From the NCBI GenBank assembly GCA_964593805.1, contig CAZQHP010000001.1, positions 91 to 64,090 of the forward strand: DNA of 64,000 nt, read 5' to 3'. This stretch comes from an uncultured Candidatus Saccharibacteria bacterium. Its GTDB lineage: Bacteria > Patescibacteriota > Saccharimonadia > Saccharimonadales > JBBQAJ01. A model generated the notes under the pieces. That model was not told the origin of the DNA, searched no databases, and worked only from the letters and a program-made list of their open reading frames with translations. The first letter of the stretch is position 1, and every line of letters begins with the position of its first letter. This document shows positions 2,452 through 63,731 of this stretch, in pieces. Position numbers and translations under genes: made by a program.

Positions 2452-2484
<33 letters not shown>

Positions 2485-8778: not shown

Positions 8779-9873
8779 ATGGCTCGTGTCGTAAAGAACG
8801 CTTCAAGAAAAAACAACAAGTCTAGAACTAGCTCAAGAAGACTTGGCTTTCGAAACAAGGTTTATCTAAGAAGTTCGCGGGCGTGGATATTTGCGCTGGC
8901 ATTTGCAGTAGTTGGCACTGTTTTGGTGTATAGAAGTTTTGCAGCAAGTAATTTGCCAAGCTATTCAGACGATATTGTCGCTGGTTATATTAATATGACT
9001 CCAACCAGCATAGTTAGGGACAGTGCGGGAAACCTAAGCTACGAAATGTATCCGGCCTCTACATACGTGCAGGTAGATGGTACTCTTGTTTGTGACCAAG
9101 GCGCATCGAATGGCTCTACGGTCACCACGGGCGCTTTGACAAAACGAGAAGTTGGCAAACTACATAAGGATCTGAATAGTTCCGGAGCCTTATCTTTGCC
9201 AGACGAAGTTTCTGCCGGTGATAAGTCAGCGGTCGTCGAATTTGAAGGCATCGTGATAGGCGGAGCCGAGTCTGCTAAGGGAACGGCCATTTATCCAGGA
9301 GCCAAGAAGCCTGCCGCATTTACCGAAGCCCAGGAGATGATCCAAGCCCTTTGCGCCAAAGCCAATAGCACAGTGGAACGCTCCACCATCAAGACCCCCA
9401 AAGAACCCAAACTGAAAAGTACTAAGAAAAGCGCCGTAACTTTTGTAGATAATCTGTTCACTGCCAAAGCGTCCGCTTGTTGCAACACCGGTACAAGGGA
9501 TACCGCTTTTGAAACTACCCATGCCAGTGCCATCAATACGTACCGGGCAAACAACAGTCGCACACAGCTGCCAAGAATTGCCTGCTTGGATAAAACAGCG
9601 CTGAACTGGACCCACAAAATGACCAACGCCGGGGCCATAAGCCACAATCCGAACTTGGGCAGCGACGTTACGAATAACTGCTACGTCTACTGGACAAAGC
9701 TTGGTGAAAACGTTGGCGTCGGCTATGACTCCTCTGGACTTATGGATGCGTTCATAAACAGCCCCTCCCACAATGCCAATTTGCTTGACAAGGACTGGAA
9801 ATATATGGGCATTGGCGGCGTCAAACATCCGGATGGACGTCTCTTCGTAACGCAGAACTACGCCAAGTGGTAA
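8779..9873 (+). CDS. Secreted/membrane-anchored protein with a C-terminal CAP/SCP (PR-1-like) domain
   Basis: RBS GGAG 7 nt before the ATG. N-terminal TM. C-terminus ..GENVGVGYDSSGLMDAFINSPSHNANLLDKDWKYMGIGG.. is typical of bacterial CAP/YkwD-like domains. Confidence 0.7.
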   Translation: MARVVKNASRKNNKSRTSSRRLGFRNKVYLRSSRAWIFALAFAVVGTVLVYRSFAASNLPSYSDDIVAGYINMTPTSIVRDSAGNLSYEMYPASTYVQVDGTLVCDQGASNGSTVTTGALTKREVGKLHKDLNSSGALSLPDEVSAGDKSAVVEFEGIVIGGAESAKGTAIYPGAKKPAAFTEAQEMIQALCAKANSTVERSTIKTPKEPKLKSTKKSAVTFVDNLFTAKASACCNTGTRDTAFETTHASAINTYRANNSRTQLPRIACLDKTALNWTHKMTNAGAISHNPNLGSDVTNNCYVYWTKLGENVGVGYDSSGLMDAFINSPSHNANLLDKDWKYMGIGGVKHPDGRLFVTQNYAKW

Positions 9874-11476: not shown

Positions 11477-12568
11477 ATGAGTTTATCAATCGGGATTGTC
11501 GGGTTGCCAAATGTCGGTAAGTCTACGCTGTTTAATGCGCTGACAGACGGTGATATTCTGGCTGCCAATTATCCTTTTGCAACCATTGAACCAAATACTG
11601 GCATTGTGCCCATACCAGACGAACGGCTGCAAAAACTGGCAGATGTATACAAGACAAAAAACATCGTCCCCGCGACGGTTACATTTGTAGACATTGCCGG
11701 CCTGGTTGCCGGCGCCAGCCAAGGCGAAGGCCTGGGCAACCAATTTCTAGCAAATATTCGTAGTTGCAATGCCGTCTGCCATGTTGTCCGAGCTTTTACG
11801 GACGATAATGTCCTGCATGTTGACGCCAAACATAATCCTCAGAAAGATATCGAGGTTATTAATACCGAGCTGGCGCTCGCGGACCTCCAGACCGTAGAAA
11901 AACGCTTGCCCCAAAGCGAAAAAATGGCCAAAGCTGACCCCAAACTCAAGCCCCAGGTAGATGCACTTCTCTGGGCACGAGATATCCTAAACGACAGCGT
12001 GCCTTTATTTGCAGCTCCCTCACGACTTGCAGCTCACGACTTGCTTCTTCAGGAGCTTCAGCTCCTGACGGCAAAGCCGACTATATATTTATTTAACGTA
12101 GATGAAGAAACGCTGGCCGATGACGCCAAAAAATCTCAGCTGGCTCAGCTAGTCGCACCTGCGGAAGCAGTTTTTGTCTGTGCAAAGTTAGAAAGCGAAC
12201 TAAAAAGCCTGGACACTGCAGACCGCGTAGAATTGCTAGGCAGCTATGGGGTTCAAGAATCCGGGCTGGTCCAATTAACCCACGCCGCCTACGATACGCT
12301 CGGCCTGCAGAGTTTTCTGACTGCCGGCGAAAAAGAAGTCCGGGCCTGGACAATCCCAAAAAGTGCAACCGCTCCGCAAGCCGCCGGCGTAATTCATGGC
12401 GATTTTGAGCGCGGCTTTATAGCCGCCCAAATTGTAGATTATGATGACCTGATAACGGCTGGTTCAGAAGCGGCCGCTAGGAGCTCTGGCAAAGTACGCA
12501 CCGAAGGCAAAGATTACGCAATGCGCCCCAACGATGTAGTAGAATTCCGTTTCAACGTATCAAAATAG
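11477..12568 (+). CDS. ychF: Ribosome-binding ATPase YchF
   Basis: GIVGLPNVGKSTLFNALT P-loop, ..VDIAGLV.GAS.GEGLGN.FL.., and a C-terminal TGS-like ..DFERGFI.A.. Confidence 0.95.
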   Translation: MSLSIGIVGLPNVGKSTLFNALTDGDILAANYPFATIEPNTGIVPIPDERLQKLADVYKTKNIVPATVTFVDIAGLVAGASQGEGLGNQFLANIRSCNAVCHVVRAFTDDNVLHVDAKHNPQKDIEVINTELALADLQTVEKRLPQSEKMAKADPKLKPQVDALLWARDILNDSVPLFAAPSRLAAHDLLLQELQLLTAKPTIYLFNVDEETLADDAKKSQLAQLVAPAEAVFVCAKLESELKSLDTADRVELLGSYGVQESGLVQLTHAAYDTLGLQSFLTAGEKEVRAWTIPKSATAPQAAGVIHGDFERGFIAAQIVDYDDLITAGSEAAARSSGKVRTEGKDYAMRPNDVVEFRFNVSK

Positions 12569-12620
12569 CTGTTAGCTGTTAGCTGTTAGCTGTTAGCTGT
12601 TAGCTGTTAGCTGTTAGCTA
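12567..12620. repeat. Tandem heptanucleotide array (AGCTGTT) x7.7 filling the whole convergent intergenic spacer
   Basis: Direct reading. The array begins within the ychF TAG stop and ends 2 nt before the stop of the convergent gene at 12623. Confidence 0.97.
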
Positions 12621-14728: not shown

Positions 14729-15481
14729 TCAGTTGAGCTTTGCCAACACGTAAAAACGTTCACGGTTGCCCTTTGCGCCGGCCACTTTTGAATCGGCTTT
14801 TTTGATGACTTTGAACAATTTTTGTGTCCAAATTTCGAAGTCTTTTAAGATGTTACGCCGCATAGAATCGTTCTTTATGACCCCTTTGTGCTTGAGTTCC
14901 GCGCCGCTTTCAAATTGTGGTTTTACCATCACGATTATTTGGGTTTCTTTACTGCAAAGCTGAGCAACATGTGGCAAGATTTCACGCAGGCTTATGAACG
15001 AAACATCAGCCACAACCATGTCGATTTTATGGTCAGTTGCAAAGGAACGGATGTCGGTTTTTTCATGTAACTCAACGTGCGGATCATTTCGCAATCTCAC
15101 ATGCATTTGATCGGTACCTACGTCGACTGCGATCACTTTTTTGGCACCACCCCGAAGCGCCAATTCCGTAAAACCACCCGTAGAAGATCCTACGTCCAAC
15201 ACAACTTTGTCCTGGAAGTCTAGATTCAAAGCCTCAACTACTGAATGTAGCTTTTCCCCCGCTCGCGACACAAAACTCACTCTGGATTTCACTTCAATCG
15301 GCGTTTCTTGGTCTATTATAAATCCTGCTTTCGTTGCCACGACGCCTCTGACGCTTACAAACCCGCGGCGAATAATGTCTTCTGCTTGGGAACGCGAGCT
15401 AACCAGCCCCCGCCGAAGTAATTCCTTGTCCAGCCGTTGCTTATTTGATGCGCTCACGATAATTGCCTGTCGCGGTGTCAA
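14729..15481 (-). CDS. tlyA: TlyA-family rRNA 2'-O-methyltransferase (hemolysin A-like)
   Basis: S4-like RLDKELLRRGLVSSRSQAEDIIRRG.. and SAM motif VLDVGSSTGGFTE. The start is uncertain (TTG 15481 or GVG-context GTG 15457), and both overlap the efp 3' end. Confidence 0.85.
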   Translation of the reverse strand: MTPRQAIIVSASNKQRLDKELLRRGLVSSRSQAEDIIRRGFVSVRGVVATKAGFIIDQETPIEVKSRVSFVSRAGEKLHSVVEALNLDFQDKVVLDVGSSTGGFTELALRGGAKKVIAVDVGTDQMHVRLRNDPHVELHEKTDIRSFATDHKIDMVVADVSFISLREILPHVAQLCSKETQIIVMVKPQFESGAELKHKGVIKNDSMRRNILKDFEIWTQKLFKVIKKADSKVAGAKGNRERFYVLAKLN

Positions 15482-16001
15482 CAGAGATAACGTCGCCGGT
15501 TTTTACAAATGCCGGTACTTTAATAATCAATCCCGTTTCAACGGTCGCATCTTTAGTAATTGACGAACTAGTGTCGCCTTTTACGGCGTCTTCGGCATAG
15601 GTGACCTTCAGCGGCACATTTTTAGGAAGTTCTATGTTGATTACCCGCCCGTCGAAAAGCTGGGCTTGAACTGTATCACCCTCTTTCATATAACCGGCCT
15701 TCTCCGTCAAATCCTCAGCCGGCAGCTCAAACTGTTCAAAGGTGTTTTGATCCATGAAGTGGAAGCCGCTATCGCTGTACAAAAACTGTACGTTTTTGTT
15801 GGTCACGTCGGCCGGTTCTATGGAATCATTACCCTTGAATGTCTTGTTCAGCACCTTGCCGTCCAGTAAACTTTTTATTTTGACGTTCACAATAGAGCCG
15901 CCGCGTCCCATGACCTTCTGCCCATACTCAACCACCCGGTACGGTACGTCATCCAGTTGAAAAATCTGTCCTTTTTTTAAATCAGTCGGTCCAAACGCCA
16001 T
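15441..16001 (-). CDS. efp: Elongation factor P
   Basis: ..DLKKGQIFQLDDVPYRVVEYGQKVMGRGGSIVNVKIKSLLDGK.. Full length, 186 aa. Confidence 0.95.
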   Translation of the reverse strand: MAFGPTDLKKGQIFQLDDVPYRVVEYGQKVMGRGGSIVNVKIKSLLDGKVLNKTFKGNDSIEPADVTNKNVQFLYSDSGFHFMDQNTFEQFELPAEDLTEKAGYMKEGDTVQAQLFDGRVINIELPKNVPLKVTYAEDAVKGDTSSSITKDATVETGLIIKVPAFVKTGDVISVDTATGNYRERIK

Positions 16002-16023: not shown

Positions 16024-16058
16024 AGCTATCAGCTGTCAGCTGTCAGCTCTTAGCTAGT
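16024..16058. repeat. Degenerate tandem heptamer array (AGCTNTC-like) x5
   Basis: agctatc agctgtc agctgtc agctctt agctagt, between the ssb stop and the efp start. Confidence 0.9.
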
Positions 16059-16534
16059 TAAAACGGAATGTCATCTAGGTTTATTGGTTCGTCGCCGATG
16101 TCTTCAATGACTATGTCGTCTTTTTTGGGTGCTTTGCTGGGTTTTGGCGTCTGGTCACTTTGATCACCACCATCGCTATTGCTGGAACCACTACTTTGGC
16201 CGCCTGCTCCGCCAAGGAATGTTACGTCTTGAGCCACCACCTCTACCTTGCTGCGCTTCTGGCCGTCTTTTTCCCAGCTACTTGACTGCAAGCGTCCATT
16301 TACCAAGCAAGGCCGGCCCTTGGTCAGATACTGCGCCACGCGCTCTCCTAGCGGCCCCCAGGCCACAATATCCACGTAATCGGTAGCCTCTTTCCACTCG
16401 CCGTCGCCGCCTTTGAAACTGCGGTTGAGCGCCAAACTGAACGAACAAACGTTCTGTCCATTCGGCGTTTGCCGAAGTTCCGGGTCCCGAGTCAGGTTGC
16501 CCATTAATATTACTTGGTTAAAACTTCGAGCCAT
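16058..16534 (-). CDS. ssb: Single-stranded DNA-binding protein
   Basis: NQVILMGNLTRDPELR OB-fold start, Gly/Ser-rich linker, acidic tip ..DDIPF. GGAG RBS. Confidence 0.95.
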   Translation of the reverse strand: MARSFNQVILMGNLTRDPELRQTPNGQNVCSFSLALNRSFKGGDGEWKEATDYVDIVAWGPLGERVAQYLTKGRPCLVNGRLQSSSWEKDGQKRSKVEVVAQDVTFLGGAGGQSSGSSNSDGGDQSDQTPKPSKAPKKDDIVIEDIGDEPINLDDIPF

Positions 16535-26865: not shown

Positions 26866-26894
26866 ACTTTAGCAATTTCTTACTTGTTTGTCAA
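26866..26894 (-). promoter_or_regulatory. Putative promoter, TTGACA-N17-TAAAGT
   Basis: Reverse complement reads TTGACAaacaagtaagaaattgcTAAAGT. It overlaps the truB 3' end. Confidence 0.45.
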
Positions 26895-27614
26895 TGTTTT
26901 GGAGAAATCTATCTCTGTTGGTGACTGTGCATATGATACGTCAAATTCGCCTACTTGGGTGCGGCGGAGGGCGGTCATGTAGGCGCTAGTTCCTAGTTCT
27001 TTGCCTATATCTTCTACCAAACTGCGGATATACGTGCCGGAAGAAACTTTGGCGGTGAATTTCACCTCTGGATATGCATAATCCACATCAGAAATGCTGT
27101 AAATCGTCACCCTTCGAGGCTCAAGCACCACTTCTTTGCCCTCTCTGGCTAATTTGTAAGCCCGTTGGCCATTTACTTTGACGGCGCTGAACTTGTGCGG
27201 CGTTTGCATGATTTCGCCCTGGAACGACCCCAAGACTGCCATAAAAGCTTTTTCTGATGGTTTTTCACCAGATACAATGGTCTTTTCACCCTCTTCATCG
27301 CCAGTTGTGCTGGTTTGGCCCAGTTTCATAGTCACTTCGTATACTTTGTCTAGTTTGCTAAACTCATGCGCCCGTTTGCAGTAACTGCCAAGGAGAATTA
27401 CCAAAAGTCCGGTTGCGAGCGGATCCAGAGTGCCGGCGTGGCCAACCTTCACCTTCCGTGAAGGAGTACTGAGTCGAGAGTCCTGAGTCGAGAGTTTTTC
27501 GCTCCGTACTCCGTACTCTGTACTCTGTGACTGGCGCAAAAGTCCCCTGACTTTTGCGACTACGTCAAACGACGTCCAGCCAGACGGCTTATCAATCAGT
27601 AAAATTCCATCCAC
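26880..27614 (-). CDS. truB: tRNA pseudouridine-55 synthase TruB, with a repeat-encoded insertion
   Basis: GTG start. GILLIDKPSGWTSFDVV.. and catalytic ..GHAGTLDPLATGLLVILLG. An extra ~21-24 aa lies between these motifs. Confidence 0.92.
   Translation of the reverse strand: MDGILLIDKPSGWTSFDVVAKVRGLLRQSQSTEYGVRSEKLSTQDSRLSTPSRKVKVGHAGTLDPLATGLLVILLGSYCKRAHEFSKLDKVYEVTMKLGQTSTTGDEEGEKTIVSGEKPSEKAFMAVLGSFQGEIMQTPHKFSAVKVNGQRAYKLAREGKEVVLEPRRVTIYSISDVDYAYPEVKFTAKVSSGTYIRSLVEDIGKELGTSAYMTALRRTQVGEFDVSYAQSPTEIDFSKTLTNK
27469..27531. repeat. 7-nt-periodic tract inside truB (9 units, 63 nt)
   Basis: ctgagtc gagagtc ctgagtc gagagtt tttcgct ccgtact ccgtact ctgtact ctgtgac. It encodes ..SQSTEYGVRSEKLSTQDSRLS.. 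Confidence 0.9.
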
Positions 27615-27628
27615 GAACGCAGTATAAC

Positions 27629-29341
27629 CTACGCGGGTGTGTTGCCGGGGGTGTTGGCATCATCTGCGAGAGGCATAATGGGCGGTATCAAAGGTGGAGG
27701 CACTGGCGGCGGCGCAGTTGGATTAGCTAGCGAAGCGGCGGTGCTGTCCGCGGGCAGACCGGAACCTGGCATTACTAGTCCCGCCGGCAAATTGGGATCC
27801 GCCGCTGGAGTCAAGGTTGGGGTAGCTGGAGCCGATGCATCACTTTTGTTTAGATCCACCGGAAAAGCGTTTAGGGATTGAACCGGTTCGAGCATCTGTG
27901 GCGGCGTGCCGCTGACTGCTTGCATGACAGCGCTTCGGGCATCAGAAACTCCGCTGCCGGTTTGGTTTGTGGAAGCGAGCGGTCCGGGCGTCTGAGCCAA
28001 ATGCGGGCTGCCGACCACTTTTTCCAAGTCAGAGAGAGTGCTTAGCGATTGGTTCGGTTCTGGCGCCGGGCTAGAAGCAGGACCACTAATATCTTCGGCT
28101 GTTGGCTGAAAAATACTTGTTGCCGGCGCATTTTGGCTGGTTGCCGGTGTTTCATGAGAAAGCAAAGGGCCTTGTGCGGCATTTGCGCCCAGTGGATCGA
28201 TGCTTGGATCTAGGCCTTCTGGGGTGCTGTTGGCTGTTAGCGTACCTCCAAGCGTGGGCGGCTGTGTGATTAGGCGAGAACCGGCCGAATATTCGTTAGC
28301 CTCTTCTGTTGGAAGCGGTTCAATCACTTTTTGCTTCATGGCCTCAATGTCTTTGGCTCGTTTTAGTATGCCCTCTTTGTCTATGTCTATTTGCTCTAAC
28401 GGGTTTTCTTCTGGTTCTTCGCTGTCTGGCAAAGCATTTAGATCAATTAGGGGCTTTTTGTTGCCATGATCAATCTCTAGCGAGCCGTCATCAACTTCTT
28501 CGACTTTTGTTTCAACCATTTCAGCCGGTGCCGCCGCCTGTTTGCTCTCTGTGACTTCTGGCAGTTCTGCATCGTCTTCTGCGGGAGCCTCCGTTACGGT
28601 CTGGGGCTGTAGTTGGCTGGCCACCAGTTGCTGGTTGGCGCCGGCTGCCATCAGCTTGGCGCTTAGCTGCATGGTTGCCGAAGAGGTTTTTTCATTACTA
28701 AAACGATTGGTTTCCGCCACAATACCGGTTAGAAAGGCAGTGGCCATCTGACCGTCTAGTACATCTGCTTTCAAGCTGAGACCCATGTCTAGCAGCATTT
28801 CGCATAGGCTGCTGGCATCTGGCTGCACCCAGTTTATACTGCCCAAGTTGGCCCCGTCTTGAGTGTTTACGCTTACCACCGTGGCATCGTGCAAAATACG
28901 GCCGTGAGAAGTGATGGCTTGGTCCAAATCTTTCTGCTCGTTTACCCCCAGAGCCATGACCACGTCTACGTTAAAATCACCTTGGCTGAATTCTAGGTCT
29001 TTGTCGCTTATAGAGGTCCGGTACGGCGTTATGAAAATTTTGACCATCTGGTCTTCTACTTTATAGCGCAGTTTGTCGGCTTTGGATTTGTCCAGAGCAA
29101 TTATAAAATCTCGCAGACTGTCGGTGTTTTTTTCAAGCGTCTTTTCCGGCTGCAAAAACTCAATGGTATTAGGAACCACGCCGCTAAAAACAGCTGTGGC
29201 GTGTTTGCCTAGTTTGTTGAGTAGCAAAGTCAGACCTATAACGGCCGCCAACTGATCTACCGAAGGATTAGCACGCACGGTCACTAAGACGTTATTTGCC
29301 TGCTTCAATCTGTCGGTAATCTGCTTTTTGGGGGAGTCCAT
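27629..29341 (-). CDS. DHH/DHHA1-family (NrnA-like) protein with degenerate catalytic motifs and a ~300-aa Pro/Ala/Ser-rich C-terminal extension
   Basis: ..ATAFLTGIVAETNRFS.. resembles the NrnA linker/DHHA1 region. It sits upstream of truB, as in many rbfA-nrnA-truB clusters. No canonical DHH residues were seen. Confidence 0.5.
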   Translation of the reverse strand: MDSPKKQITDRLKQANNVLVTVRANPSVDQLAAVIGLTLLLNKLGKHATAVFSGVVPNTIEFLQPEKTLEKNTDSLRDFIIALDKSKADKLRYKVEDQMVKIFITPYRTSISDKDLEFSQGDFNVDVVMALGVNEQKDLDQAITSHGRILHDATVVSVNTQDGANLGSINWVQPDASSLCEMLLDMGLSLKADVLDGQMATAFLTGIVAETNRFSNEKTSSATMQLSAKLMAAGANQQLVASQLQPQTVTEAPAEDDAELPEVTESKQAAAPAEMVETKVEEVDDGSLEIDHGNKKPLIDLNALPDSEEPEENPLEQIDIDKEGILKRAKDIEAMKQKVIEPLPTEEANEYSAGSRLITQPPTLGGTLTANSTPEGLDPSIDPLGANAAQGPLLSHETPATSQNAPATSIFQPTAEDISGPASSPAPEPNQSLSTLSDLEKVVGSPHLAQTPGPLASTNQTGSGVSDARSAVMQAVSGTPPQMLEPVQSLNAFPVDLNKSDASAPATPTLTPAADPNLPAGLVMPGSGLPADSTAASLANPTAPPPVPPPLIPPIMPLADDANTPGNTPA

Positions 29342-31252: not shown

Positions 31253-32161
31253 TCACGCCTTTTGGCATTTGGGGCAAGTGTGGGTGCCGCGGCCGGCTAC
31301 TCGAGTCTTTGTAATTATTGTACCGCAGCGTGGACACTCTTGACCCTCACGGCGGAATACACGCGCAAAACTGAGGTAGCTGCCCTTTTTGCCTTCCGCA
31401 TTCACATAATTTCTATCTGTTGAACCGCCTTTTGCTATAGCTAGATTTAGGACAAATTGAAGTTTGGTAAATAATTTGTATATTTTGACTTTGGAAAGAT
31501 TTTTTACCAATGTAGCCGGGTGGATTTTGGCGTCCCATAGGCTTTCGTCGGCGTATATATTGCCTACGCCCGCTATCACGGTTTGGTCCAAAAGTGCGGC
31601 TTTAATATTTGTATTCGGCCGGCGTAAAAGCCGCTCCTGAAAGGCTTTTTTGGTAAAATCAGCAGCCAATGGCTCGGGTCCAACGCGTCTAAAAAAGTCT
31701 ATGTTTGGCACCTCGATGGTGGGCAAAAGTTTCATCCAGCCAAATTTGCGCTGGTCGTTGAAGAAAAGTTCGGAGCCGTCTGTGAAGGTAATAATTACCC
31801 TAGTTGATTTGTCGGGTAAGCCTCCGACCAAAGATTCACTCGGGTGTCCAGCCCCAAACCTTTCTTCAGCTGTCAGCTGTCCGCTACTAGCTGTTAGCTT
31901 GTGCGCTTCGCGCACATAAACCATTTGTCCGGTCATTTTGAGATGACTCACGAGTGTGTGTCCGGAAGACAAATCAATGAGCAATATTTTTGCACGCCGC
32001 CGGACACCAATGATTTTGGAACCCACCAAAAACGCCTTTACGTCCGCCTCAGCGTTTGGAAATGATTTGGCCCAGTCGTGCGTAATGCCAGCAATGGCCT
32101 TACCAATAACAAATTTATTTAGTCCTGTTCGGACCGTTTCAACCTCAGGTAGTTCTGGCAT
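31253..32161 (-). CDS. mutM: Formamidopyrimidine-DNA glycosylase (Fpg/MutM), with a repeat-encoded insertion
   Basis: MPELPEVETVR N-terminus, H2TH region, and C-terminal zinc finger CPRCG...CPKCQ. Confidence 0.93.
   Translation of the reverse strand: MPELPEVETVRTGLNKFVIGKAIAGITHDWAKSFPNAEADVKAFLVGSKIIGVRRRAKILLIDLSSGHTLVSHLKMTGQMVYVREAHKLTASSGQLTAEERFGAGHPSESLVGGLPDKSTRVIITFTDGSELFFNDQRKFGWMKLLPTIEVPNIDFFRRVGPEPLAADFTKKAFQERLLRRPNTNIKAALLDQTVIAGVGNIYADESLWDAKIHPATLVKNLSKVKIYKLFTKLQFVLNLAIAKGGSTDRNYVNAEGKKGSYLSFARVFRREGQECPRCGTIITKTRVAGRGTHTCPKCQKA
31867..31901. repeat. Tandem heptamers inside mutM
   Basis: cagctgt cagctgt ccgctac tagctgt tagcttg. It encodes ..HKLTASSGQLTAE.. Confidence 0.9.
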
Positions 32162-32186
32162 GGTCTATTCATTGTACAATAAGGGT

Positions 32187-37823: not shown

Positions 37824-40534
37824 TACAATTCGCCCCAGTTTTTGCCGGTGGTGGCGTCTACGGTTAGCTTTACAGGGAGTTTGTGGACGTTTTCCATGGT
37901 GTCTTTGAGTAGTTTGGCGGTCGCTTCGGCTTCTTTTTCATCACATTCTACAATTAGGGAGTCATGAATTTGCAGCAGAATGCGAGCTTCTCCCGCAGGA
38001 GCAGGAAGTAAGGAGTAGGAAGAAGGGTGGGCTGTATTTTTGCCTTGCTCCTTGCTCCTTGCTCCTTGCTCCGCAAAAGCATCTAGCTTTTGCTGGACGT
38101 GAACCATGGCTAGTTTCATGATGTCGGCCGCTGTTCCCTGGAACGGCACGTTTACGGCGGCCCGTATAGCGGATTCTCGTACGACGAAGTTGCTGGAGTG
38201 CACGTCTGGCGTGGGGCGGCGTCGGCCAAACAGCGTTTCCACGTAGCCGTCTTTGCGCGCCTGCTCTTTGACGGATTCTATGTAGCCCAACAGTTTAGGA
38301 CGGACTTCAAAGTATTTGTCTATAAAGTGCTTGGCTTGTTCGTATGTCATGCCGGTAGCGGCTACCAAACCGTGCGTGCTTAGGCCGTACATGACACCAA
38401 AATTCACTACTTTGGCATCGCGGCGCATATTTTTGGTCACGTCTTGCTCTTCTCTGTCATAAATCAGCGCCGCGGTGGCAGTATGGACGTCTACGTCGCG
38501 GTTAAACATGTCTATCAGGTTGTCGTCTCCGCACAAATAAGCCGCCAGGCGCAGTTCAAACTGGCTGTAGTCGGCGCTAACCAGCATTTTGCCCGGTCCG
38601 GCTACAAAAGCCGTACGGATTTGCCGGCCCAGATCTGTTTTGACAGGAATGTTTTGGAGGTTCGGGTCATTGGAACTCAGCCGGCCAGTTTGGGCTACTG
38701 TGAGCGCAAAGGTGGTATGGACGCGGGAGTTTTCGTCTACCATAGTCGGCAAAGTATCTACGTAGGTGTTTTTGAGCTTGGTGACTTCGCGGTACTGAGT
38801 TATGAAATCAATAATTGGGTGCGCTTCCCGCAGTTTGACCAGTTCGCTGGCGGCGGTTGAATAACCGGTTTTGCCTTTTTTGATATTGGCAGTAGGCAAA
38901 TTTAGTTTGTTGAACAATATATCTGCCAGCTGGGCTGGAGAGGCTATGTTAAACTCTTGGTCGGCGTAGCCGTAAATTTGTTGTTCAAGGTCGGAAACGG
39001 CGTCATTTAACTGTTCTGCCATGAGCCCTAGGTAGTTGGTATCCAGCTGTATGCCTTCGTATTCCATGCGCGCCAGCACGGGGATAACTGGAAATTCAAT
39101 GTCTTTGGCCAGCTTGGCAACTTTTGGCATACCAGCCAGATCTTTCGCTTGCTCCTTATGTAACATGGCGATTAAACCGATAATTTCTGATCCTCTTGCC
39201 GCGTATTCTTCGGTACTTAAATCTTCTATTGAACCCTCGAAACCAATGTCTTCAGCAGCGAGAGTTTGCAAAGAAACTTCTCTACGCAAGCTATTTATAA
39301 GGAAAGCGCCAACCATCACATCGTGCTCCACGTGCGGCAGCTTTATGCCCAGTCCAATCAGTACTTTCAAGGTGTTCTTTATGTCGTAGCCAATAACAGA
39401 GTTAAGGGTTGAGAGCAGAGGGTTGAGAGCTTTAGCCGATACCTTTGAAAGATCAATAGCGTATGTTTTCTTTCCATCCTTGCTTACAAGTAATATCAGA
39501 GGATTTTGACCGTGTTTACCAGCGGAGCGGCTGTCTATAAAAATGTTTTTTGCGTCTTTAAGATCAAGTTTTGCCAAATCAGCATCGCTGCTAATCAAAC
39601 TGCTGGCGCTGCCATTGTGCTCAAATACATTTCGTTCTTTATGTTGCTCTTGCAGCTGCATTATATCCGGCAGTTGGCGGACTAGGCTGCGGAATTCCAG
39701 TTTTTGCAAAATGTCACGGATGCGTTCGGGGTGGGCTTTGGTGCCGTCTACTTCTTTCAGGTTCAGTTTTATGGGCGCATCTGTCCATATGCTGGCCAGT
39801 TTTTTACTCAGGTACGCCATGTCTTTGCCAGCTTCTAATTTTTTGCGAGTAGTTTCTTTTATCAGCACCAGATTTTCATACACTTTGTCTAGTGTGCCGT
39901 ACGCTTTAAGCAATTCAATCGCACCCTTTTCGCCTATTCCAGGCACCCCAGGGATGTTGTCTGAACTATCGCCTTTTAGCGCTTTTAGATCCAGAAACTG
40001 TGAAGCGTTTATGCCGTATTTGGCCTCAAAACTTTCCGGATGAAACAGTTCTATGTTGCTGAGTCCTTTTTTAAGTGCATATACGCTCACGTGCCAGTCA
40101 ACCATCTGCAACATATCTAAATCAGACGTTACGAGCATGGTCTCAATGTCTTTTGAGGTTGCTTGTATAGCAAGAGTCCCCATAATGTCATCGGCCTCAT
40201 AATCATCCAGCTCATATAAAGGCCAGCCAAAAGCATCTAACAGGTCATGAAGTATAGGAATTTGTTCATAAAAATCTGGCGGCGGCGGTTTGCGCCCGGC
40301 TTTGTACTCAGGGTACAGTTCCAAGCGTTTGCGAATGTTGGTTTTGGGCTTGTCCCACGCCACGCAGACATAATCCGGCTTGAGACGTTTTATAACTTCT
40401 AGCGCCATAGTGGCAAAACCAAACACGCCGCCAGTGGGTGTACCGTCTTTGGTACTCAGATTTGGCATGGCATAGTAACCACGGTAAAAGACTGACTTGC
40501 CATCAATAATCGCTAGTTTTTTGCGCTCCGCCAT
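37823..40534 (-). CDS. polA: DNA polymerase I
   Basis: 5' nuclease domain (..DNIPGVPGIGEKGA..), a 3'-5' exo-like region, and polymerase motifs ..DYSQFELR.., ..RRDAKVVNFG..YG.., ..QIHDSLIVE.. Confidence 0.95.
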   Translation of the reverse strand: MAERKKLAIIDGKSVFYRGYYAMPNLSTKDGTPTGGVFGFATMALEVIKRLKPDYVCVAWDKPKTNIRKRLELYPEYKAGRKPPPPDFYEQIPILHDLLDAFGWPLYELDDYEADDIMGTLAIQATSKDIETMLVTSDLDMLQMVDWHVSVYALKKGLSNIELFHPESFEAKYGINASQFLDLKALKGDSSDNIPGVPGIGEKGAIELLKAYGTLDKVYENLVLIKETTRKKLEAGKDMAYLSKKLASIWTDAPIKLNLKEVDGTKAHPERIRDILQKLEFRSLVRQLPDIMQLQEQHKERNVFEHNGSASSLISSDADLAKLDLKDAKNIFIDSRSAGKHGQNPLILLVSKDGKKTYAIDLSKVSAKALNPLLSTLNSVIGYDIKNTLKVLIGLGIKLPHVEHDVMVGAFLINSLRREVSLQTLAAEDIGFEGSIEDLSTEEYAARGSEIIGLIAMLHKEQAKDLAGMPKVAKLAKDIEFPVIPVLARMEYEGIQLDTNYLGLMAEQLNDAVSDLEQQIYGYADQEFNIASPAQLADILFNKLNLPTANIKKGKTGYSTAASELVKLREAHPIIDFITQYREVTKLKNTYVDTLPTMVDENSRVHTTFALTVAQTGRLSSNDPNLQNIPVKTDLGRQIRTAFVAGPGKMLVSADYSQFELRLAAYLCGDDNLIDMFNRDVDVHTATAALIYDREEQDVTKNMRRDAKVVNFGVMYGLSTHGLVAATGMTYEQAKHFIDKYFEVRPKLLGYIESVKEQARKDGYVETLFGRRRPTPDVHSSNFVVRESAIRAAVNVPFQGTAADIMKLAMVHVQQKLDAFAEQGARSKEQGKNTAHPSSYSLLPAPAGEARILLQIHDSLIVECDEKEAEATAKLLKDTMENVHKLPVKLTVDATTGKNWGEL
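37994..38070. repeat. 7-nt-periodic tract inside polA ending in (CCTTGCT) x4
   Basis: ..gcaggaa gtaagga gtaggaa gaagggt .. ccttgct ccttgct ccttgct ccttgct. It encodes ..EQGARSKEQGKNTAHPSSYSLLPAPAGEA.. just upstream of polymerase motif C. Confidence 0.85.
39405..39432. repeat. 14-nt (2x7) direct repeat inside polA
   Basis: agggttgagagca gagggttgagagct. It encodes ..KALNPLLSTLNS.. Confidence 0.8.
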
Positions 40535-40603
40535 CGTAGTTATAGTATACGCTGACAGATGCCAAAACGAATAAGTCGCTAGCGCTTTCTAAAATGCTAC
40601 ACT

Positions 40604-50672: not shown

Positions 50673-52325
50673 CTACATCCTGTCTGGCGCGGGAATGTTG
50701 AGAAGTTCCAGACCGCTTTTTAGCGTGTCGGCATAAGCTTGAACTAAATTCAAACGGACAGCTTGGCGCGGGTCGTCCAGCACGCGGTTGTTTTCATAAA
50801 AACGGTTAAAAACCTGCGCTAGTTCGTATAAATACGTGCAGACATGATGCGGCATGAGTTCCTGTACTGCCCTGTCCACCACCTCTGTATATTCACCAAT
50901 CTTCCTTAGCAGGCTTCTTTCATCCTTTTGGAGTTTTTCTGAAGACTTTGGACTTTGGACTTTGGACTTAGCGAGAATACTTCTCGCCCTGGCGTGCGCG
51001 TACTGCAGGTACGGCCCGCTGTTGCCCTCCAGTGCCACTGATTCTGCCGGATCGTAAATGACGTCTCCGCCCATGCGATTTTTTAATAGTGCGTATTTGA
51101 CTGCCGCCAGCGCCGTAGTTTCGTCGTCTTTGCCAGTAGTTTTTTGGTTGGCCGCGCGAGCCGCGTCAATCACATCAATGGCGCGCAGTATGTTGCCCTT
51201 GCGGCTGCTCATTTTCACACCGCCAGCCAGTTTCACCATGCCGTGAGTTAGGTGCGTAGTGGCTGTTGACAATTCAGGTGCGAATTGCTCAATCGCTTTT
51301 AACACCACAGCCATGTACTGGGCTTGTTCGTTGCCGGTTATGACGACTGATTTGTCAAAGTTGTAGTCGCGCTTTTTGGCCACAATCAGCCCCACATCTT
51401 TGGCTTCGTAGGTTGGCAAACCTTCGGAGTTTACAAAAACGCGAGTGTGCAAATCATGGTCTTCGCCTTTGAACACAATTGCGCCCTCCGACTCCACGAA
51501 AACATCTGGAATGTGCTCTTTAACAGTTTGGACCCCCAGCTCTGCGACTTCGCTTTCCGGGTAGTATTTTTCAAAACTACTGCCTATGCGCTTATAGAAT
51601 TCGTCGAAATAGTCATAGCTCCACTGCCGGCATGTCCAATATATTTGCGCAAACGCAGATTCTTTGTCGCCGTCTGCGTGCAGCTGGTATACGCGTTTAT
51701 TCAGTGTGGTAATTTCGGCCTTTGCGGCTTCGTTTTCATCGTAAGCAGTCGTACCTTCTATGTAAGCCTTGGTCAGCCATTCGGCATGGTTTTCAATCGC
51801 CTTGAGCCCGTCTGGATTTTCACCGCCGAGCTCTCGCAAAATGGCCCACATGGTTTTGCCAACGTGCAGACCAACATCGCCGCCAAAGTTCACGCGGTGG
51901 ACTTTGGCTCCGGCCGCTTCCAACAAAGATGCTATCCCGTCCCCCACCACGGAGGTATACAAATGGCCAGCATGCAGGACTTTGAATGGGTTCGGGTCGG
52001 AATATTCCGCTACGACTTCTTTGCCTGCCAAGACGCGCATTGGCTTCTGAGCCGCAAGCTTAGTCAGAGCTGCGTCTGTCAACGTTAAATTTATAAACCC
52101 CGGGCCAGCGATATCTGCGGACACAATGCTGGGATGTTTCAGAGCCGATTTAAGGGTTTCGGCAACTTCGCGCGGGTTTTTATCCAGCCGTTTGCCCAAC
52201 TGAAGGGCAACGCTGGTAGCGTAATCGCCGAATTGCTCGTCGGGGCGCGTCAAATCCACCTCAACGTCAACGTTGAACAATTCTTTGCACGCCCCCGCGA
52301 TTGCCTGCTCCAGTTCTTGCCTCAT
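50673..52325 (-). CDS. argS: Arginine--tRNA ligase, with a repeat-encoded insertion
   Basis: ..YSDPNPFKVLHAGHL.. (HIGH-type), ..MSSRKGN.. (KMSK-type), and a C-terminal DALR anticodon-binding region. Confidence 0.95.
   Translation of the reverse strand: MRQELEQAIAGACKELFNVDVEVDLTRPDEQFGDYATSVALQLGKRLDKNPREVAETLKSALKHPSIVSADIAGPGFINLTLTDAALTKLAAQKPMRVLAGKEVVAEYSDPNPFKVLHAGHLYTSVVGDGIASLLEAAGAKVHRVNFGGDVGLHVGKTMWAILRELGGENPDGLKAIENHAEWLTKAYIEGTTAYDENEAAKAEITTLNKRVYQLHADGDKESAFAQIYWTCRQWSYDYFDEFYKRIGSSFEKYYPESEVAELGVQTVKEHIPDVFVESEGAIVFKGEDHDLHTRVFVNSEGLPTYEAKDVGLIVAKKRDYNFDKSVVITGNEQAQYMAVVLKAIEQFAPELSTATTHLTHGMVKLAGGVKMSSRKGNILRAIDVIDAARAANQKTTGKDDETTALAAVKYALLKNRMGGDVIYDPAESVALEGNSGPYLQYAHARARSILAKSKVQSPKSSEKLQKDERSLLRKIGEYTEVVDRAVQELMPHHVCTYLYELAQVFNRFYENNRVLDDPRQAVRLNLVQAYADTLKSGLELLNIPAPDRM
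50944..50971. repeat. Tandem heptamers (GACTTTG) x3 plus one degenerate unit inside argS
   Basis: gactttg gactttg gactttg gacttag. It encodes ..KSKVQSPKS.. Confidence 0.95.
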
Positions 52326-52344
52326 GGCTTTACTATAGCAAAGA

Positions 52345-53019
52345 TTAGCGCTCGGGTTTTAGCGTTAGTGCCTGGACTAAATTCCAAACCACGGCATAGA
52401 TGCTGCCAATCAGCGCAAAAAAAGTCAGTGTAGTTACAAACGCCTGCGGGTGCGCCAGCGGATGGATTATCCGTTCTGACACGTCAAACAGCAGTCCGGC
52501 CGGGCTTACCAGCAAATCCCAGGTGTTCCAGCGCAAACTTCGTCCCAGATAAATTGCAAAGCTATTTGCTAGCAAAACGCCCGTAATAAGCAATGTCGCA
52601 AAATTTGCAGTACGGCGTTTAAGCAGCTGGCGGTGAACCATGATCAGGCTAATTATTCCGGCCAACAAGCCGTTCCAGATGCATGACAGAAATAGCACAA
52701 TGTCAAACAGCAGGCCAATGTCTCCGGTATTACGCAAATGAATCAGATCGCTCATGAGGTAAAAACTATTGGGCAAAAATCCCAACCACAGCAGCGTTAG
52801 CAATATAGGTATGGGCTCTTTCCAGCTTTGACTTTTCAATTTGTTCGCCAAAAGCCACGCAAAAAGCACTGGCGTCCAGCCCAATAGTAGATTCCAGAAC
52901 AAAAACCAGTATTGCGTGTTGTCCGTCCCCGCTACGCGCAACCCAAACAGCACTACGCTCACCAGGTTGGATAGCAAAATCGCCCGCACAACTCCCCGGC
53001 TCGCAGCCTTTGCAGTCAT
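52345..53019 (-). CDS. Polytopic membrane protein (DUF1361-like)
   Basis: At least 6 TM segments. ..FWNLLLGWTPVLFAW.. resembles the DUF1361 signature. Confidence 0.5.
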   Translation of the reverse strand: MTAKAASRGVVRAILLSNLVSVVLFGLRVAGTDNTQYWFLFWNLLLGWTPVLFAWLLANKLKSQSWKEPIPILLTLLWLGFLPNSFYLMSDLIHLRNTGDIGLLFDIVLFLSCIWNGLLAGIISLIMVHRQLLKRRTANFATLLITGVLLANSFAIYLGRSLRWNTWDLLVSPAGLLFDVSERIIHPLAHPQAFVTTLTFFALIGSIYAVVWNLVQALTLKPER

Positions 53020-55269: not shown

Positions 55270-55787
55270 ACGACTATATAGCGGCTCTACTGTTTTTTCT
55301 TCCGGCTGGAGTGGGTAATATGAGCCCGGTGATTGCCAACAGACTGCCGCTTATCAAAAACTGGAACGCGCCAATGGATTTTGGCAAAAGCTGGCGCGGC
55401 CAGCGGATTTTGGGCGGCAATAAACGGCTCCGGGGCATTGTATTCGGCACAATCATGGGCGGTTTGACGGCTGTTGTTGTCAGTAAATTCAACGCCAATA
55501 CGGTGGTCACCATCGCGCCGTTTTGGGCCGGTTGCCTGCTGGGCTTTGGCGCTTTGGCCGGAGACGCCGTGGAAAGCTTTTTCAAGCGCCAGCACGGATT
55601 GGATCCTGGTGCCAGTTGGTTTCCGTTTGATCAAATTGATTACATAGCCGGCGGCTTGCTGGTAATTTATCCATTTGTCCAGTTGCCTCAATGGTCCATG
55701 GTAACGATTGTGGTGGTATATTTTGGCCTGCATCTCACCACCGCCTACAGCGCGTTTCTGCTAGGCCTCAAAGACAAACCTATTTAG
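55266..55787 (+). CDS. CDP-archaeol synthase-like (CarS / DUF46) membrane protein
   Basis: ..GNMSPVIANRLP....PMDFGKSWRGQRILGGNKRLRG.. and ..GDAVESFFKRQ.....G....FDQIDY.. match the CarS family pattern. ATGA overlap with the PHP gene. Confidence 0.7.
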   Translation: MNDYIAALLFFLPAGVGNMSPVIANRLPLIKNWNAPMDFGKSWRGQRILGGNKRLRGIVFGTIMGGLTAVVVSKFNANTVVTIAPFWAGCLLGFGALAGDAVESFFKRQHGLDPGASWFPFDQIDYIAGGLLVIYPFVQLPQWSMVTIVVVYFGLHLTTAYSAFLLGLKDKPI

Positions 55788-62651: not shown

Positions 62652-63731
62652 ATGATAATTCTTGGCATAGAAACCAGCTGTGATGAAACGGCTTGCGGGA
62701 TTGTGCAGAACGGCAAAAAACTTTTGGCAAATGCAGTGCTTTCCAGCATGGATTTGCATGCCGTATACGGCGGCGTAGTCCCGGAAATCGCCGCCAGAAG
62801 CCACATTGAAGCGATTATCCCTGTTATTCAGCAAGCTTTAGGGCAAGCAAACTGTACTTGGGACGACATTGACGGAATTGCGGTAACCTACGGTGCTGGG
62901 CTGGGCGGTTGCCTGCTGGTGGGCGTCATGACCGCCCGCACGCTGGCAATTGCCAAAAACAAGCCCATGTACGCCGTCAACCACGTTGAAGCGCACGCTT
63001 ATGCCAACTTCCTAACGGAAGTAGCTAACAGCTTACAGCTGACAGCTGACAGCTATAAATTACCGCATTCCGCACCTTCCTTTCCCATGTTAGGGCTAAT
63101 AGTCAGTGGCGGGCATTCGCAGCTGGTCCTCTGGCGCAATCACTTTGATTACACCTTGCTAGGGCAAACGCAAGACGACGCTATAGGTGAAGCGTTCGAC
63201 AAAGTCGCCAAAATACTTGGTCTCCCCTACCCTGGCGGCCCCAGTCTGGAGACATTTGCCAAAAACGGCGACCCAAATGCCTTTAGTTTCCCCAAAGCCA
63301 AGATGAGCAACAGATACGACTACTCATTTAGCGGCATCAAAACAGCCGTTTTGCGCGCTGCCCAGAAATTAATAGGTGAAAACCACGACTTCCCTTCCCA
63401 TAAGCTTTCAGAACGGCTCTCAGAGGCTCAGAAAGCAGACATTGCGGCCAGCTTCCAGCGTGTGGCCGTGGAAACAGTAGTAGACAAGACGTTACAGGCC
63501 TATGAGGAGTTCAATCCACGAAGCGTTGTCATCGGCGGCGGCGTAGCCGCCAGCCCGGAACTTCGCCGCCAATTAGCCGAACGCCTTCCCATCCCTATCG
63601 AATATACAGACATGAAACTATGCACCGACAACGGCGCCATGATAGCCACCCTCGGCTGCTTCAAAGCTATGAATAATCAAGAAAAAGCCGACCCCTACTC
63701 TCTAGAAATCGCCCCAAATTTATCAATGTAA
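62652..63731 (+). CDS. tsaD: tRNA N6-adenosine threonylcarbamoyltransferase TsaD, with a repeat-encoded insertion
   Basis: MIILGIETSCDETA.. and ..NHVEAH...VSGGHS.. The ATG at 62652 lies 7 nt after TATACT. Confidence 0.93.
   Translation: MIILGIETSCDETACGIVQNGKKLLANAVLSSMDLHAVYGGVVPEIAARSHIEAIIPVIQQALGQANCTWDDIDGIAVTYGAGLGGCLLVGVMTARTLAIAKNKPMYAVNHVEAHAYANFLTEVANSLQLTADSYKLPHSAPSFPMLGLIVSGGHSQLVLWRNHFDYTLLGQTQDDAIGEAFDKVAKILGLPYPGGPSLETFAKNGDPNAFSFPKAKMSNRYDYSFSGIKTAVLRAAQKLIGENHDFPSHKLSERLSEAQKADIAASFQRVAVETVVDKTLQAYEEFNPRSVVIGGGVAASPELRRQLAERLPIPIEYTDMKLCTDNGAMIATLGCFKAMNNQEKADPYSLEIAPNLSM
63021..63055. repeat. Tandem heptamers (ACAGCTG-type) x5 inside tsaD
   Basis: gtagcta acagctt acagctg acagctg acagcta. 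It encodes ..VANSLQLTADSY.. between the HxxxH region and the VSGGHS motif. Confidence 0.92.

Follow-up and report, generated by a model that had tools for sequence, protein, structure and literature searches.

In this study we analysed 64,000 nt of a Candidatus Saccharibacteria contig (CAZQHP010000001.1), a stretch hereafter called the window, and within it the tsaD gene, which encodes a member of the TsaD/Kae1/Qri7 family of threonylcarbamoyl transferases and carries an array of seven-nucleotide repeats inside its coding sequence. The open reading frame (ORF) matched NCBIfam TIGR03723 over profile positions 1-312 of 314 (E = 4.8e-115; 384 bits, cut-off 296.1), and its closest PDB relatives were the TsaD proteins of Thermotoga, Salmonella, E. 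coli and Aquifex. The AlphaFold2 model (predicted local distance difference test, pLDDT, 91.6; predicted template-modelling score, pTM, 0.91) was matched by Foldseek with template-modelling (TM) scores of 0.82-0.89 to 3zet_B, 4wq5, 4ydu and 6z81, which are solved TsaD structures, including those of E. coli and Salmonella with 0.83-0.89, and has an ASKHA-type two-domain TsaD/Kae1 fold. H111, H115, S152-G153-G154-H155 and D326-N327-G328 fall in invariant columns of 66 homologs, window TsaD among them, and the HxxxH, SGGH and C-terminal Asp motifs align to those of Thermotoga TsaD. Judged from its sequence, window TsaD is a full-length member of the bacterial N6-threonylcarbamoyladenosine (t6A) transferase subunit family with intact catalytic motifs, and tsaD was intact in all 120 homologs examined. 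As a separate observation, the SGGH motif, invariant elsewhere, reads SGKH, SGTH or SGLH in the TsaD of loci L030, L031, L097, L110, L114, L116 and L058.

A heptamer array in the TsaD connector loop

The initial annotation had described ACAGCTG-type heptamers in tsaD between the metal-binding His motif and SGGHS, and the sequence, the repeat analysis and the reading frame all bear this out. Positions 63021-63055 read gtagcta acagctt acagctg acagctg acagcta, that is, five head-to-tail ACAGCTG-type heptamers, and Tandem Repeats Finder (TRF) reported 63023-63054 as a repeat of period 7 with 4.6 copies, 92% matches and a score of 50, so that the tract holds at least three head-to-tail copies, beyond what chance would give. 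The unit AGCTGAC (ACAGCTG rotated) is translated in frame into VANSLQLTADSY (V124-A-N-S-L-Q-L-T-A-D-S-Y135), the three frames of the unit being read in turn to yield A-D-S-x-Q-L-T. Two of the five units carry substitutions within about 33 nt. In the tsaD frame a perfect array would read GCT GAC AGC TGA and hence run into a stop, a codon that is TTA (Leu128) in the window (Table 1). The tract is weakly self-complementary and its predicted folding is weak (-6.7 kcal/mol); a strong hairpin driving the tract was rejected on this marginal fold (z = -1.96).

The count of 24 residues between HAYAN and FP was correct, and the 7-10 residues given for Bacillus and E. coli TsaD agree with the roughly 7-9 found in solved ones, the Salmonella and E. 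coli proteins reading L121-EDNPPE-FP at this place. From the second His of HVEAH to SGGH the window protein has 36 aa vs 19-20 aa in solved TsaD structures, and in alignments to it the loop is 16 residues shorter in Thermotoga and 17 shorter in Aquifex. The segment is thus an in-frame insertion relative to canonical TsaD and bears a genuine heptamer-repeat signature. Full-length match, catalytic motifs and conserved fold all place the protein with TsaD/Kae1/Qri7, but it differs from other members in this connector, which leads from the HxxxH helix to the SGGH strand and among Saccharibacteria ranges from 19 to 73 aa.

Not all of the extra length can be ascribed to the repeat. Among 117 parsable loops from the 120 closest homologs (75-100% identity), 80 were of 30 aa, 14 of 33 aa and 16 of 36 aa (window included), so that these three discrete classes make up 110 of the 117, the remainder being rare and the overall range 29 to 49 aa. 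In the fetched Saccharibacteria genomes and metagenomes, loops extend from the canonical 19-20 aa up to 56 and 73 aa, and a Y-x-L-P motif is retained in nearly all of them. By sequence comparison, roughly ten of these 16 additional residues are part of an expanded loop common to most Saccharibacteria, with the conserved Y-x-L-P. The array allele is 6 aa longer than the 30-aa loop and exceeds the 29-aa allele of L164 by 7 aa, or three units (21 nt). The attribution of the loop excess to the array therefore holds for the 6 aa over the modal 30-aa loop; the other roughly 10 of 16 residues are Saccharibacteria-wide. The longest loops encountered, of 73, 73 and 56 aa (L028:10343-10561, L104:2216-2434 and L023:3273-3440), are rich in Ser, Ala and Pro, and their DNA has no clear periodicity; they may be fully decayed arrays or of other origin.

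In the AlphaFold2 model the loop connects the N-terminal and C-terminal domains with little regular structure (pLDDT about 81-82). The insertion had been placed close to the active-site region, which stands for the sequence alone, since the metal-binding His and SGGH border the loop on either side; the loop does not figure among the reported tRNA-contacting elements. In tRNA-bound Thermotoga TsaB2D (2026) these are TsaD helix alpha7, the alpha1-alpha2 hairpin and the TsaB C-terminal helix, and the HVEAH-SGGHS loop is not named among the TsaD elements (PMC13276492). Because near-identical proteins carry very different peptides here and some Saccharibacteria keep the canonical 19-20 aa, the insertion would seem to be tolerated rather than required, and its effect on TsaD catalysis is probably small.

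An old array, fixed in length and decaying

All relatives with a 36-aa loop for which DNA was fetched carried an array of the same length at differing stages of decay, the array-bearing relatives sharing 71-90% protein identity with window TsaD. The array reads GCTGACA GCTCACA GCTGACG GCTGACA GCTAT in L162 and GCTAACA GTTCACA GCTGACA GCTGACA GCTAT in L161 (90% protein identity); more degraded versions occur in L163, L001, L004 and L022, and L081 has GCTGAAA-type units throughout. The would-be TGA codon of the second unit is altered in every carrier, to TTA in the window and to TCA, TCG or AAA in the relatives. The 36-aa orthologs thus show the decaying array in their DNA, and same-length orthologs devoid of a repeat signature did not turn up.

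Differing unit numbers in related genomes, which the initial annotation had suggested looking for, were not the rule. In all eight carrier relatives, a comparison of relatives and not of strains, the array was equal in length and in frame. The sole unit-number variant seen was L164, whose loop (ATA GCT GAC AGC TAC) is shorter by exactly 21 nt, or three units, with the frame kept. No frame-shifting length variant of the tsaD array was found among the relatives, where length differences were 0 or 21 nt. The tsaD array is therefore an old one that keeps its length while point substitutions erode it.

The TsaD loop as a recurrent heptamer site

Heptamer arrays were counted in loci L001-L160, fetched solely because they encode TsaD relatives and with the window excluded, using a period-7 self-match of at least 21/28 as the threshold and same-size windows elsewhere in these loci as the background. 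Arrays were present in 8 of 134 distinct tsaD loop DNAs vs 10 of 20,420 background windows (0.05%), an odds ratio of about 130 (Fisher p about 1e-13). The signal was specific to the period: none of the 134 tsaD loops scored at any other period from 4 to 13, and two scored at period 14. Across 2.03 Mb of related loci there were 21 distinct period-7 tracts, 13 of them in tsaD, nine lying in the HVEAH-SGGHS loop and four in two other loops; the eight outside tsaD were non-coding in six cases and in questionable ORFs in two, and the neighbouring murE, valS and groEL genes of these loci contained none.

The units differ between lineages: GCTACCA (L003), TACCAAC (L092), ACCATCT/ACCACCT (L039, L117), TGGCAAA/TGGAAGG (L041, L044), AAAGTAG followed by TTCAACC (L111, L116), GCGGTAC followed by four perfect GCTTACC (L167) and (GGTAGCAGATTACA)2.4 (L165, L168), so that at least six unrelated heptamer units were found in this one loop. 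Some genomes carry their own unit at several sites (CCTACCA in L039, TGGAAKA in L041 and CTTCAAC in L111 and L116). In seven of nine array lineages, with the window clade and the GCTGAAA variant of L081 counted apart, the array spans the Y-x-L-P codons; S-Y-Q-L-P encoded as AGC TAY CAG CTA CCA equals (GCTAYCA)2, and D-Y-R-L encoded as GAT TAC AGA TTG equals GATTACA GATTG. Since the codons of the motif lie inside most arrays, we propose that it might act as a built-in slippage seed beside a permissive connector. The TsaD loop is thus a recurrent landing or growth site of heptamers across Saccharibacteria.

Dispersed heptamer tracts in the window

The array is not particular to tsaD. The window contains 8 period-7 regions (self-match of at least 20/28) vs 0.02 expected from 200 codon-block shuffles, in which the maximum was 1, and other periods gave 0-2 regions by the same measure. 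TRF reported 8 period-7 and 4 period-14 arrays vs about 2 expected, and ACAGCTG occurs 23 times vs 8.6 expected (maximum 16 in shuffles), the arrays accounting for part of the excess. The 28-nt consensus of the tsaD array had three window sites at no more than 3 mismatches, two of them with one mismatch, where 0 were expected. An AGCT-based family, (AGCTNNN)n, occupies four loci in the 64 kb, at 12566, 16024, 31866 and 63022 (Table 1).

Table 1. The tsaD gene, its connector loop and the heptamer tracts of the window (positions are those of the window)
Feature	Position	Strand	Basis or context
tsaD coding sequence, intact, 359 aa	62652..63731	+	ORF and TIGR03723 match
HVEAH metal-binding motif, H111-H115, upstream anchor of the loop	62982..62996	+	translation; aligns to HVEAH of Thermotoga TsaD
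Variable part of the loop, FLTEVANSLQLTADSYKLPHSAPS, 24 aa	63009..63080	+	translation
Heptamer array, TAGCTAAC AGCTTAC AGCTGAC AGCTGAC AGCTA	63022..63055	+	TRF; period-7 self-match 24/28
TTA (Leu128), a TGA stop in a perfect array in the tsaD frame	63033..63035	+	read from the sequence
SGGHS motif, downstream anchor of the loop	63105..63119	+	translation, invariant columns
Perfect CCGCTGA x4.7 tract	2452-2484		no ORF of at least 100 aa covers it
Perfect 7.7-unit TAGCTGT array (AGCTAAC on the minus strand), AGCT-based family	12566..12619	-	fills the spacer between convergent ORFs; no ORF of at least 100 aa covers it
Intergenic copy of the family, TAGCTAAGAGCTGACAGCTGACAGCTGATAGCT on the minus strand	16024..16056	-	one mismatch to the 28-nt consensus
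Two adjacent GAGTACN arrays in inverted orientation	27464-27525	-	TruB ORF 26883-27659
AGCT-based copy in MutM/Fpg, encodes ..KLTASSGQLTAE.., in frame	31866..31899	-	MutM ORF 31256-32164
AGGAGCA-type array and perfect CCTTGCT x4.3 (reverse complement), inverted pair	37997-38072	-	PolA ORF 37826-40588
Perfect GACTTTG x3.7 array, in frame	50944-50969	-	ArgS ORF 50676-52358

The copy at 16024-16056 sits in a 56-nt spacer between two minus-strand ORFs (15441-16001 and 16058-16534), and its part 16029-16056 is identical to the tsaD tract at 26 of 28 positions, each being one base off the 28-nt consensus. A variant first unit, AGCTAAS, is common to the tsaD tract, this copy and the MutM copy. The array at 12566-12619 runs from the stop codon of one ORF to that of the convergent ORF. 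The perfect intergenic arrays fold no better than shuffled sequence; uninterrupted tracts such as these at 2452-2484 and 12566-12619 are likely to be the ones prone to length change.

Several further tracts are translated in conserved enzymes. Compared with Geobacillus MutM (1l1t), the window MutM has an insertion of roughly 27 residues, and the array lies inside it. In tRNA pseudouridine synthase B (TruB) the two arrays form a predicted imperfect hairpin (-14.1 kcal/mol, z = -2.5) and encode some 26 residues added between VAKVRGLL and the catalytic motif GHAGTLDP, and in PolA the inverted pair (hairpin of -17.5 kcal/mol) accounts for about 28 extra residues directly before polymerase motif C (QIHDSL). 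The ArgS array encodes KSKVQSPKS after the YAHAR region of arginyl-tRNA synthetase. TsaD and MutM share one heptamer family and TruB, PolA and ArgS have other units; all of these ORFs are intact, and the arrays of TsaD, MutM, TruB and PolA coincide with insertions relative to solved homologs. The tsaD array is therefore one of a dispersed heptamer-repeat family in this genome.

Apparent exchange of loop alleles

The distribution of loop lengths does not follow the rest of the protein. Outside the loop, P0014 (36-aa loop) shares 93% identity with P0041, whose loop is 30 aa long, and 92% with P0027, whose loop has 49 aa; P0017 and P0077 behave similarly, and proteins 93% identical outside the loop have 18-, 24- or 37-residue versions of it. 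A single ancient insertion defining a clade was rejected, because the 36-, 33- and 30-aa alleles intermingle among closest relatives outside the loop. A neighbour-joining tree computed outside the loop was poorly resolved, and we therefore relied on pairwise identities and on sliding-window DNA identity. The tsaD genes compared at L165:2201-2308 and L168:3346-3453 are 74% identical overall and 95-97% identical over the loop, where 41 identical nt contain (GGTAGCAGATTACA)2, a coincidence with a chance of about 0.004 by our own estimate from the overall identity; each is about 58% identical at the loop to its own closest relative, which has an ordinary 30-aa loop. Loop alleles thus seem to pass between lineages in short tracts.

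Signs of copying within one gene were also seen. The tsaD genes L116:209-1600 and L111:5001-6455 hold heptamer-array insertions in three or four loops and encode proteins of 463 and 484 aa. In L116 the same (GTTGAAA)n..(CTTCAAC)n composite stands in loops A and B with 31 identical nt, variant units included, its two arms being inverted complements, and a further copy stands in a fourth loop; L111 has CTTCAAC arrays in two loops. The tsaD elements of L167 and L116 are clear inverted array pairs.

Origin of the tsaD array

We consider it the best-supported reading, with a probability of roughly 0.6, that the tsaD tract is an old, frame-filtered relic of heptanucleotide repeat growth and slippage, tolerated by its host protein and belonging to a dispersed family. 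Slipped-strand mispairing would have amplified the 7-nt unit AGCTGAC, a likely seed being the loop motif S-Y-Q-L-P, whose codons AGC TAY CAG CTA CCA make two copies of GCTAYCA. The repeat would thereby have become coding in a permissive, lineage-specific connector loop of an enzyme otherwise intact. Since a 7-nt unit does not divide into codons, length changes persist only if their net effect leaves the frame intact, and as the unit carries TGA in one frame, that codon is mutated in every surviving copy; the array being old, length-fixed and decaying, it is no present-day switch. The tract belongs to a heptamer-repeat family spread genome-wide, with members in spacers between genes and in loops of further housekeeping enzymes. 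Altogether this looks like repeat-driven remodelling of protein loops and not a change of enzyme chemistry.

A number of observations weigh against this reading. Plain growth of a perfect GCTGACA array would yield an in-frame TGA; the array thus grew otherwise than by simple slippage within tsaD, or else the 29-aa allele arose by a later deletion and the path to the 36-aa allele is unseen. The 36-aa and 30-aa alleles differ by 18 nt together with sequence replacement, which is not a clean multiple of 7. Among carriers the array DNA is more conserved than the rest of the gene (window vs L161, 95% identity in the array region and 80% overall; window vs L162, 88% and 75%), which plain neutral decay does not predict. 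The mosaicism of alleles and the duplicate composite of L116 go beyond local slippage and fit short-tract recombination or whole-element copying, and imperfections common to dispersed copies (the AGCTAAS first unit, the 31 nt of L116) point to whole-element copying. This reading does not account for the much higher heptamer load of tsaD than of neighbouring murE and valS.

It might instead be supposed that the tsaD tract is a copy of a short self-propagating heptamer element, often a hairpin-forming inverted array, which is pasted or converted in frame into spacers and housekeeping loops and whose length slippage modulates afterwards. This we regard as somewhat unlikely, while recognising how much it would account for: dispersed copies and in-frame insertions in unrelated conserved genes were both found, the four (AGCTNNN)n loci share the internal order of variant units, and the 16029-16056 copy agrees with the tsaD tract at 26 of 28 positions, among them those of the lineage-specific first unit AGCTAA. 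The composite in loops A and B of L116 (31 identical nt, inverted arms, fourth-loop copy), the CTTCAAC arrays in two loops of L111, the recurrence of the tsaD array unit elsewhere on the same contig in L041 and L039, the inverted pairs in window TruB and PolA (dG of -14.1 and -17.5 kcal/mol) and the identical 41-nt loop allele in tsaD genes 74% identical all fit it as well, and in-frame insertions of Rickettsia palindromic elements (RPEs) provide a documented precedent (PMC10969869). However, terminal inverted repeats and an associated transposase were not found, and target-site duplications were unseen on inspection of the flanks, which was not a systematic search. The window alone holds at least five unrelated units, so no single element family is at work, the elements are about 30-80 nt long, and for the tsaD tract the predicted fold is weak (-6.7 kcal/mol, z = -1.96). 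The position and length of the tsaD array are kept in relatives down to 71% protein identity, so that any insertion there would be ancient, and because arrays of the same unit are similar by construction, the apparent identity of copies is inflated. The broader claim, that Saccharibacteria harbour undescribed tiny self-propagating heptamer elements, often inverted pairs, in spacers and, in frame, in the surface loops of essential enzymes of information processing, with exchange between lineages as short cassettes and with TsaD as a preferred host in up to four loops of one gene, we put forward as a tentative and rather doubtful possibility.

An adaptive role of the loop, in which the peptide (ADS-S-QLT-ADS-Y and relatives) would be selected as a contact to a partner or tRNA or as an escape from an inhibitor, with periodicity as a by-product, appears improbable. 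The discrete lengths (30, 33 and 36 aa in 110 of 117 close homologs), the Y-x-L-P kept in nearly all loops, the conservation of the array region above the gene average among carriers, the seeming spread of loop alleles between lineages, and the moderate model confidence (pLDDT 81-82) with no disorder predicted would agree with it, but close relatives 93% identical outside the loop have very different peptides of 18, 24 and 37 residues, some Saccharibacteria keep the canonical 19-20 aa loop, the loop is absent from the reported tRNA-contacting elements, and the peptide sequences follow directly from reading the repeat units in all three frames. That tsaD is a phase-variable contingency locus, single-heptamer gain or loss shifting the frame and switching TsaD on or off, is very improbable and was rejected, the tract being interrupted and its length fixed and in frame. 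The unit length is indeed not divisible by 3, phase variation through heptanucleotide tracts is known elsewhere, for instance from the 7-bp repeats at H. influenzae hmw1A (PMC8262952), and perfect, hence mutable, heptamer tracts do lie in the intergenic spacers of the window; but instead of a long uninterrupted tract tsaD has two interrupting substitutions in about 33 nt, eight of eight carriers have the same in-frame length with an in-frame 21 nt as the only variant, a perfect tract contains a stop codon, and TsaD is a core translation-fidelity enzyme, intact in every one of the 120 homologs. As for chance similarity or an assembly artefact, no support was found and the probability is negligible, given 8 period-7 regions against 0.02 expected per window, the same array in independent assemblies from different samples, and the occurrence of the identical TsaD protein in the database, on a contig of 776,748 nt.

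Relation to known repeats and significance

Many bacteria have an excess of heptameric simple sequence repeats (SSRs), for which a slippage hypothesis based on the polymerase footprint has been put forward (PMC4692102, citing Mrazek 2007); the cyanobacterial short tandemly repeated repetitive (STRR) sequences and the GGGNATC repeats of Xanthomonas and Nostoc are described as mainly intergenic. The tracts reported here share with these a 7-nt unit, genome-specific families at many loci, inverted pairs, and variation of length and sequence between relatives, but several of the arrays are translated in frame in loops of conserved enzymes, and one protein loop is hit recurrently across a phylum. 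RPEs are selfish repeats of about 150 bp found in frame in housekeeping genes (PMC10969869). Like them, the heptamer tracts are short dispersed copies, in frame in unrelated essential genes at fold-compatible positions and in part palindromic; RPEs belong to defined families, every one with its conserved peptide, and do not consist of tandem heptamers, whereas the elements here are 30-80 nt long, are built of 7-nt units with many unrelated units per genome, and are only putatively mobile. With hmw1A-type contingency loci the tsaD tract has in common a non-triplet tandem repeat associated with a gene, but it is interrupted, length-fixed and in frame, lies in a core enzyme and not a surface antigen, and showed no on/off variants. 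The tsaD case thus combines features of heptamer SSRs and of in-frame housekeeping insertions, and literature searches found no report of heptamer or heptanucleotide repeats in Saccharibacteria or Patescibacteria.

The weight of these findings lies in recurrent, period-7-specific remodelling of the TsaD loop together with signs of element copying, and not in catalysis. They outline a sequence-level route by which loops of essential conserved enzymes may gain and swap length in ultra-small symbiotic bacteria, 7-nt repeats being filtered by frame and stop codons, read in all three frames and thereafter passed from one lineage to another. Two questions become testable through the recurrence: whether heptamer repeats are slippage products only or propagating elements, and why TsaD attracts them. 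Heptamer-built loops will also confound alignments, phylogenies and structure-based annotation of Candidate Phyla Radiation proteins. Self-propagating elements, if real, would amount to RPE-like selfish DNA in Candidate Phyla Radiation proteins and would drive the evolution of loops in reduced genomes generally.

Minor observations

Non-coding heptamer arrays were noted at L039:3938-3982 and 8890-8960, L119:7075-7124, L124:7091-7133, and L027:4895-4949 and 6141-6192. Those of L039 repeat the unit of its own tsaD loop array, one of them as an inverted pair, and those of L027 are two perfect 5.5-copy arrays inside 7 kb. The query (AGCTGAC)3 gave 4 matches in 2.9 million viral contigs, a number uninformative on a phage origin. 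A period-29 tandem repeat in the window (55355-55413; 2.0 copies, 80% identity) has no relation to the heptamers. Directly upstream of valS, at L162:5254-5296, there is a CTGTAAG/CTGTTTA heptamer-like tract, and a similar one lies downstream of tsaD at L024:11569-11603; these may be the same site, and could represent a conserved leader feature.

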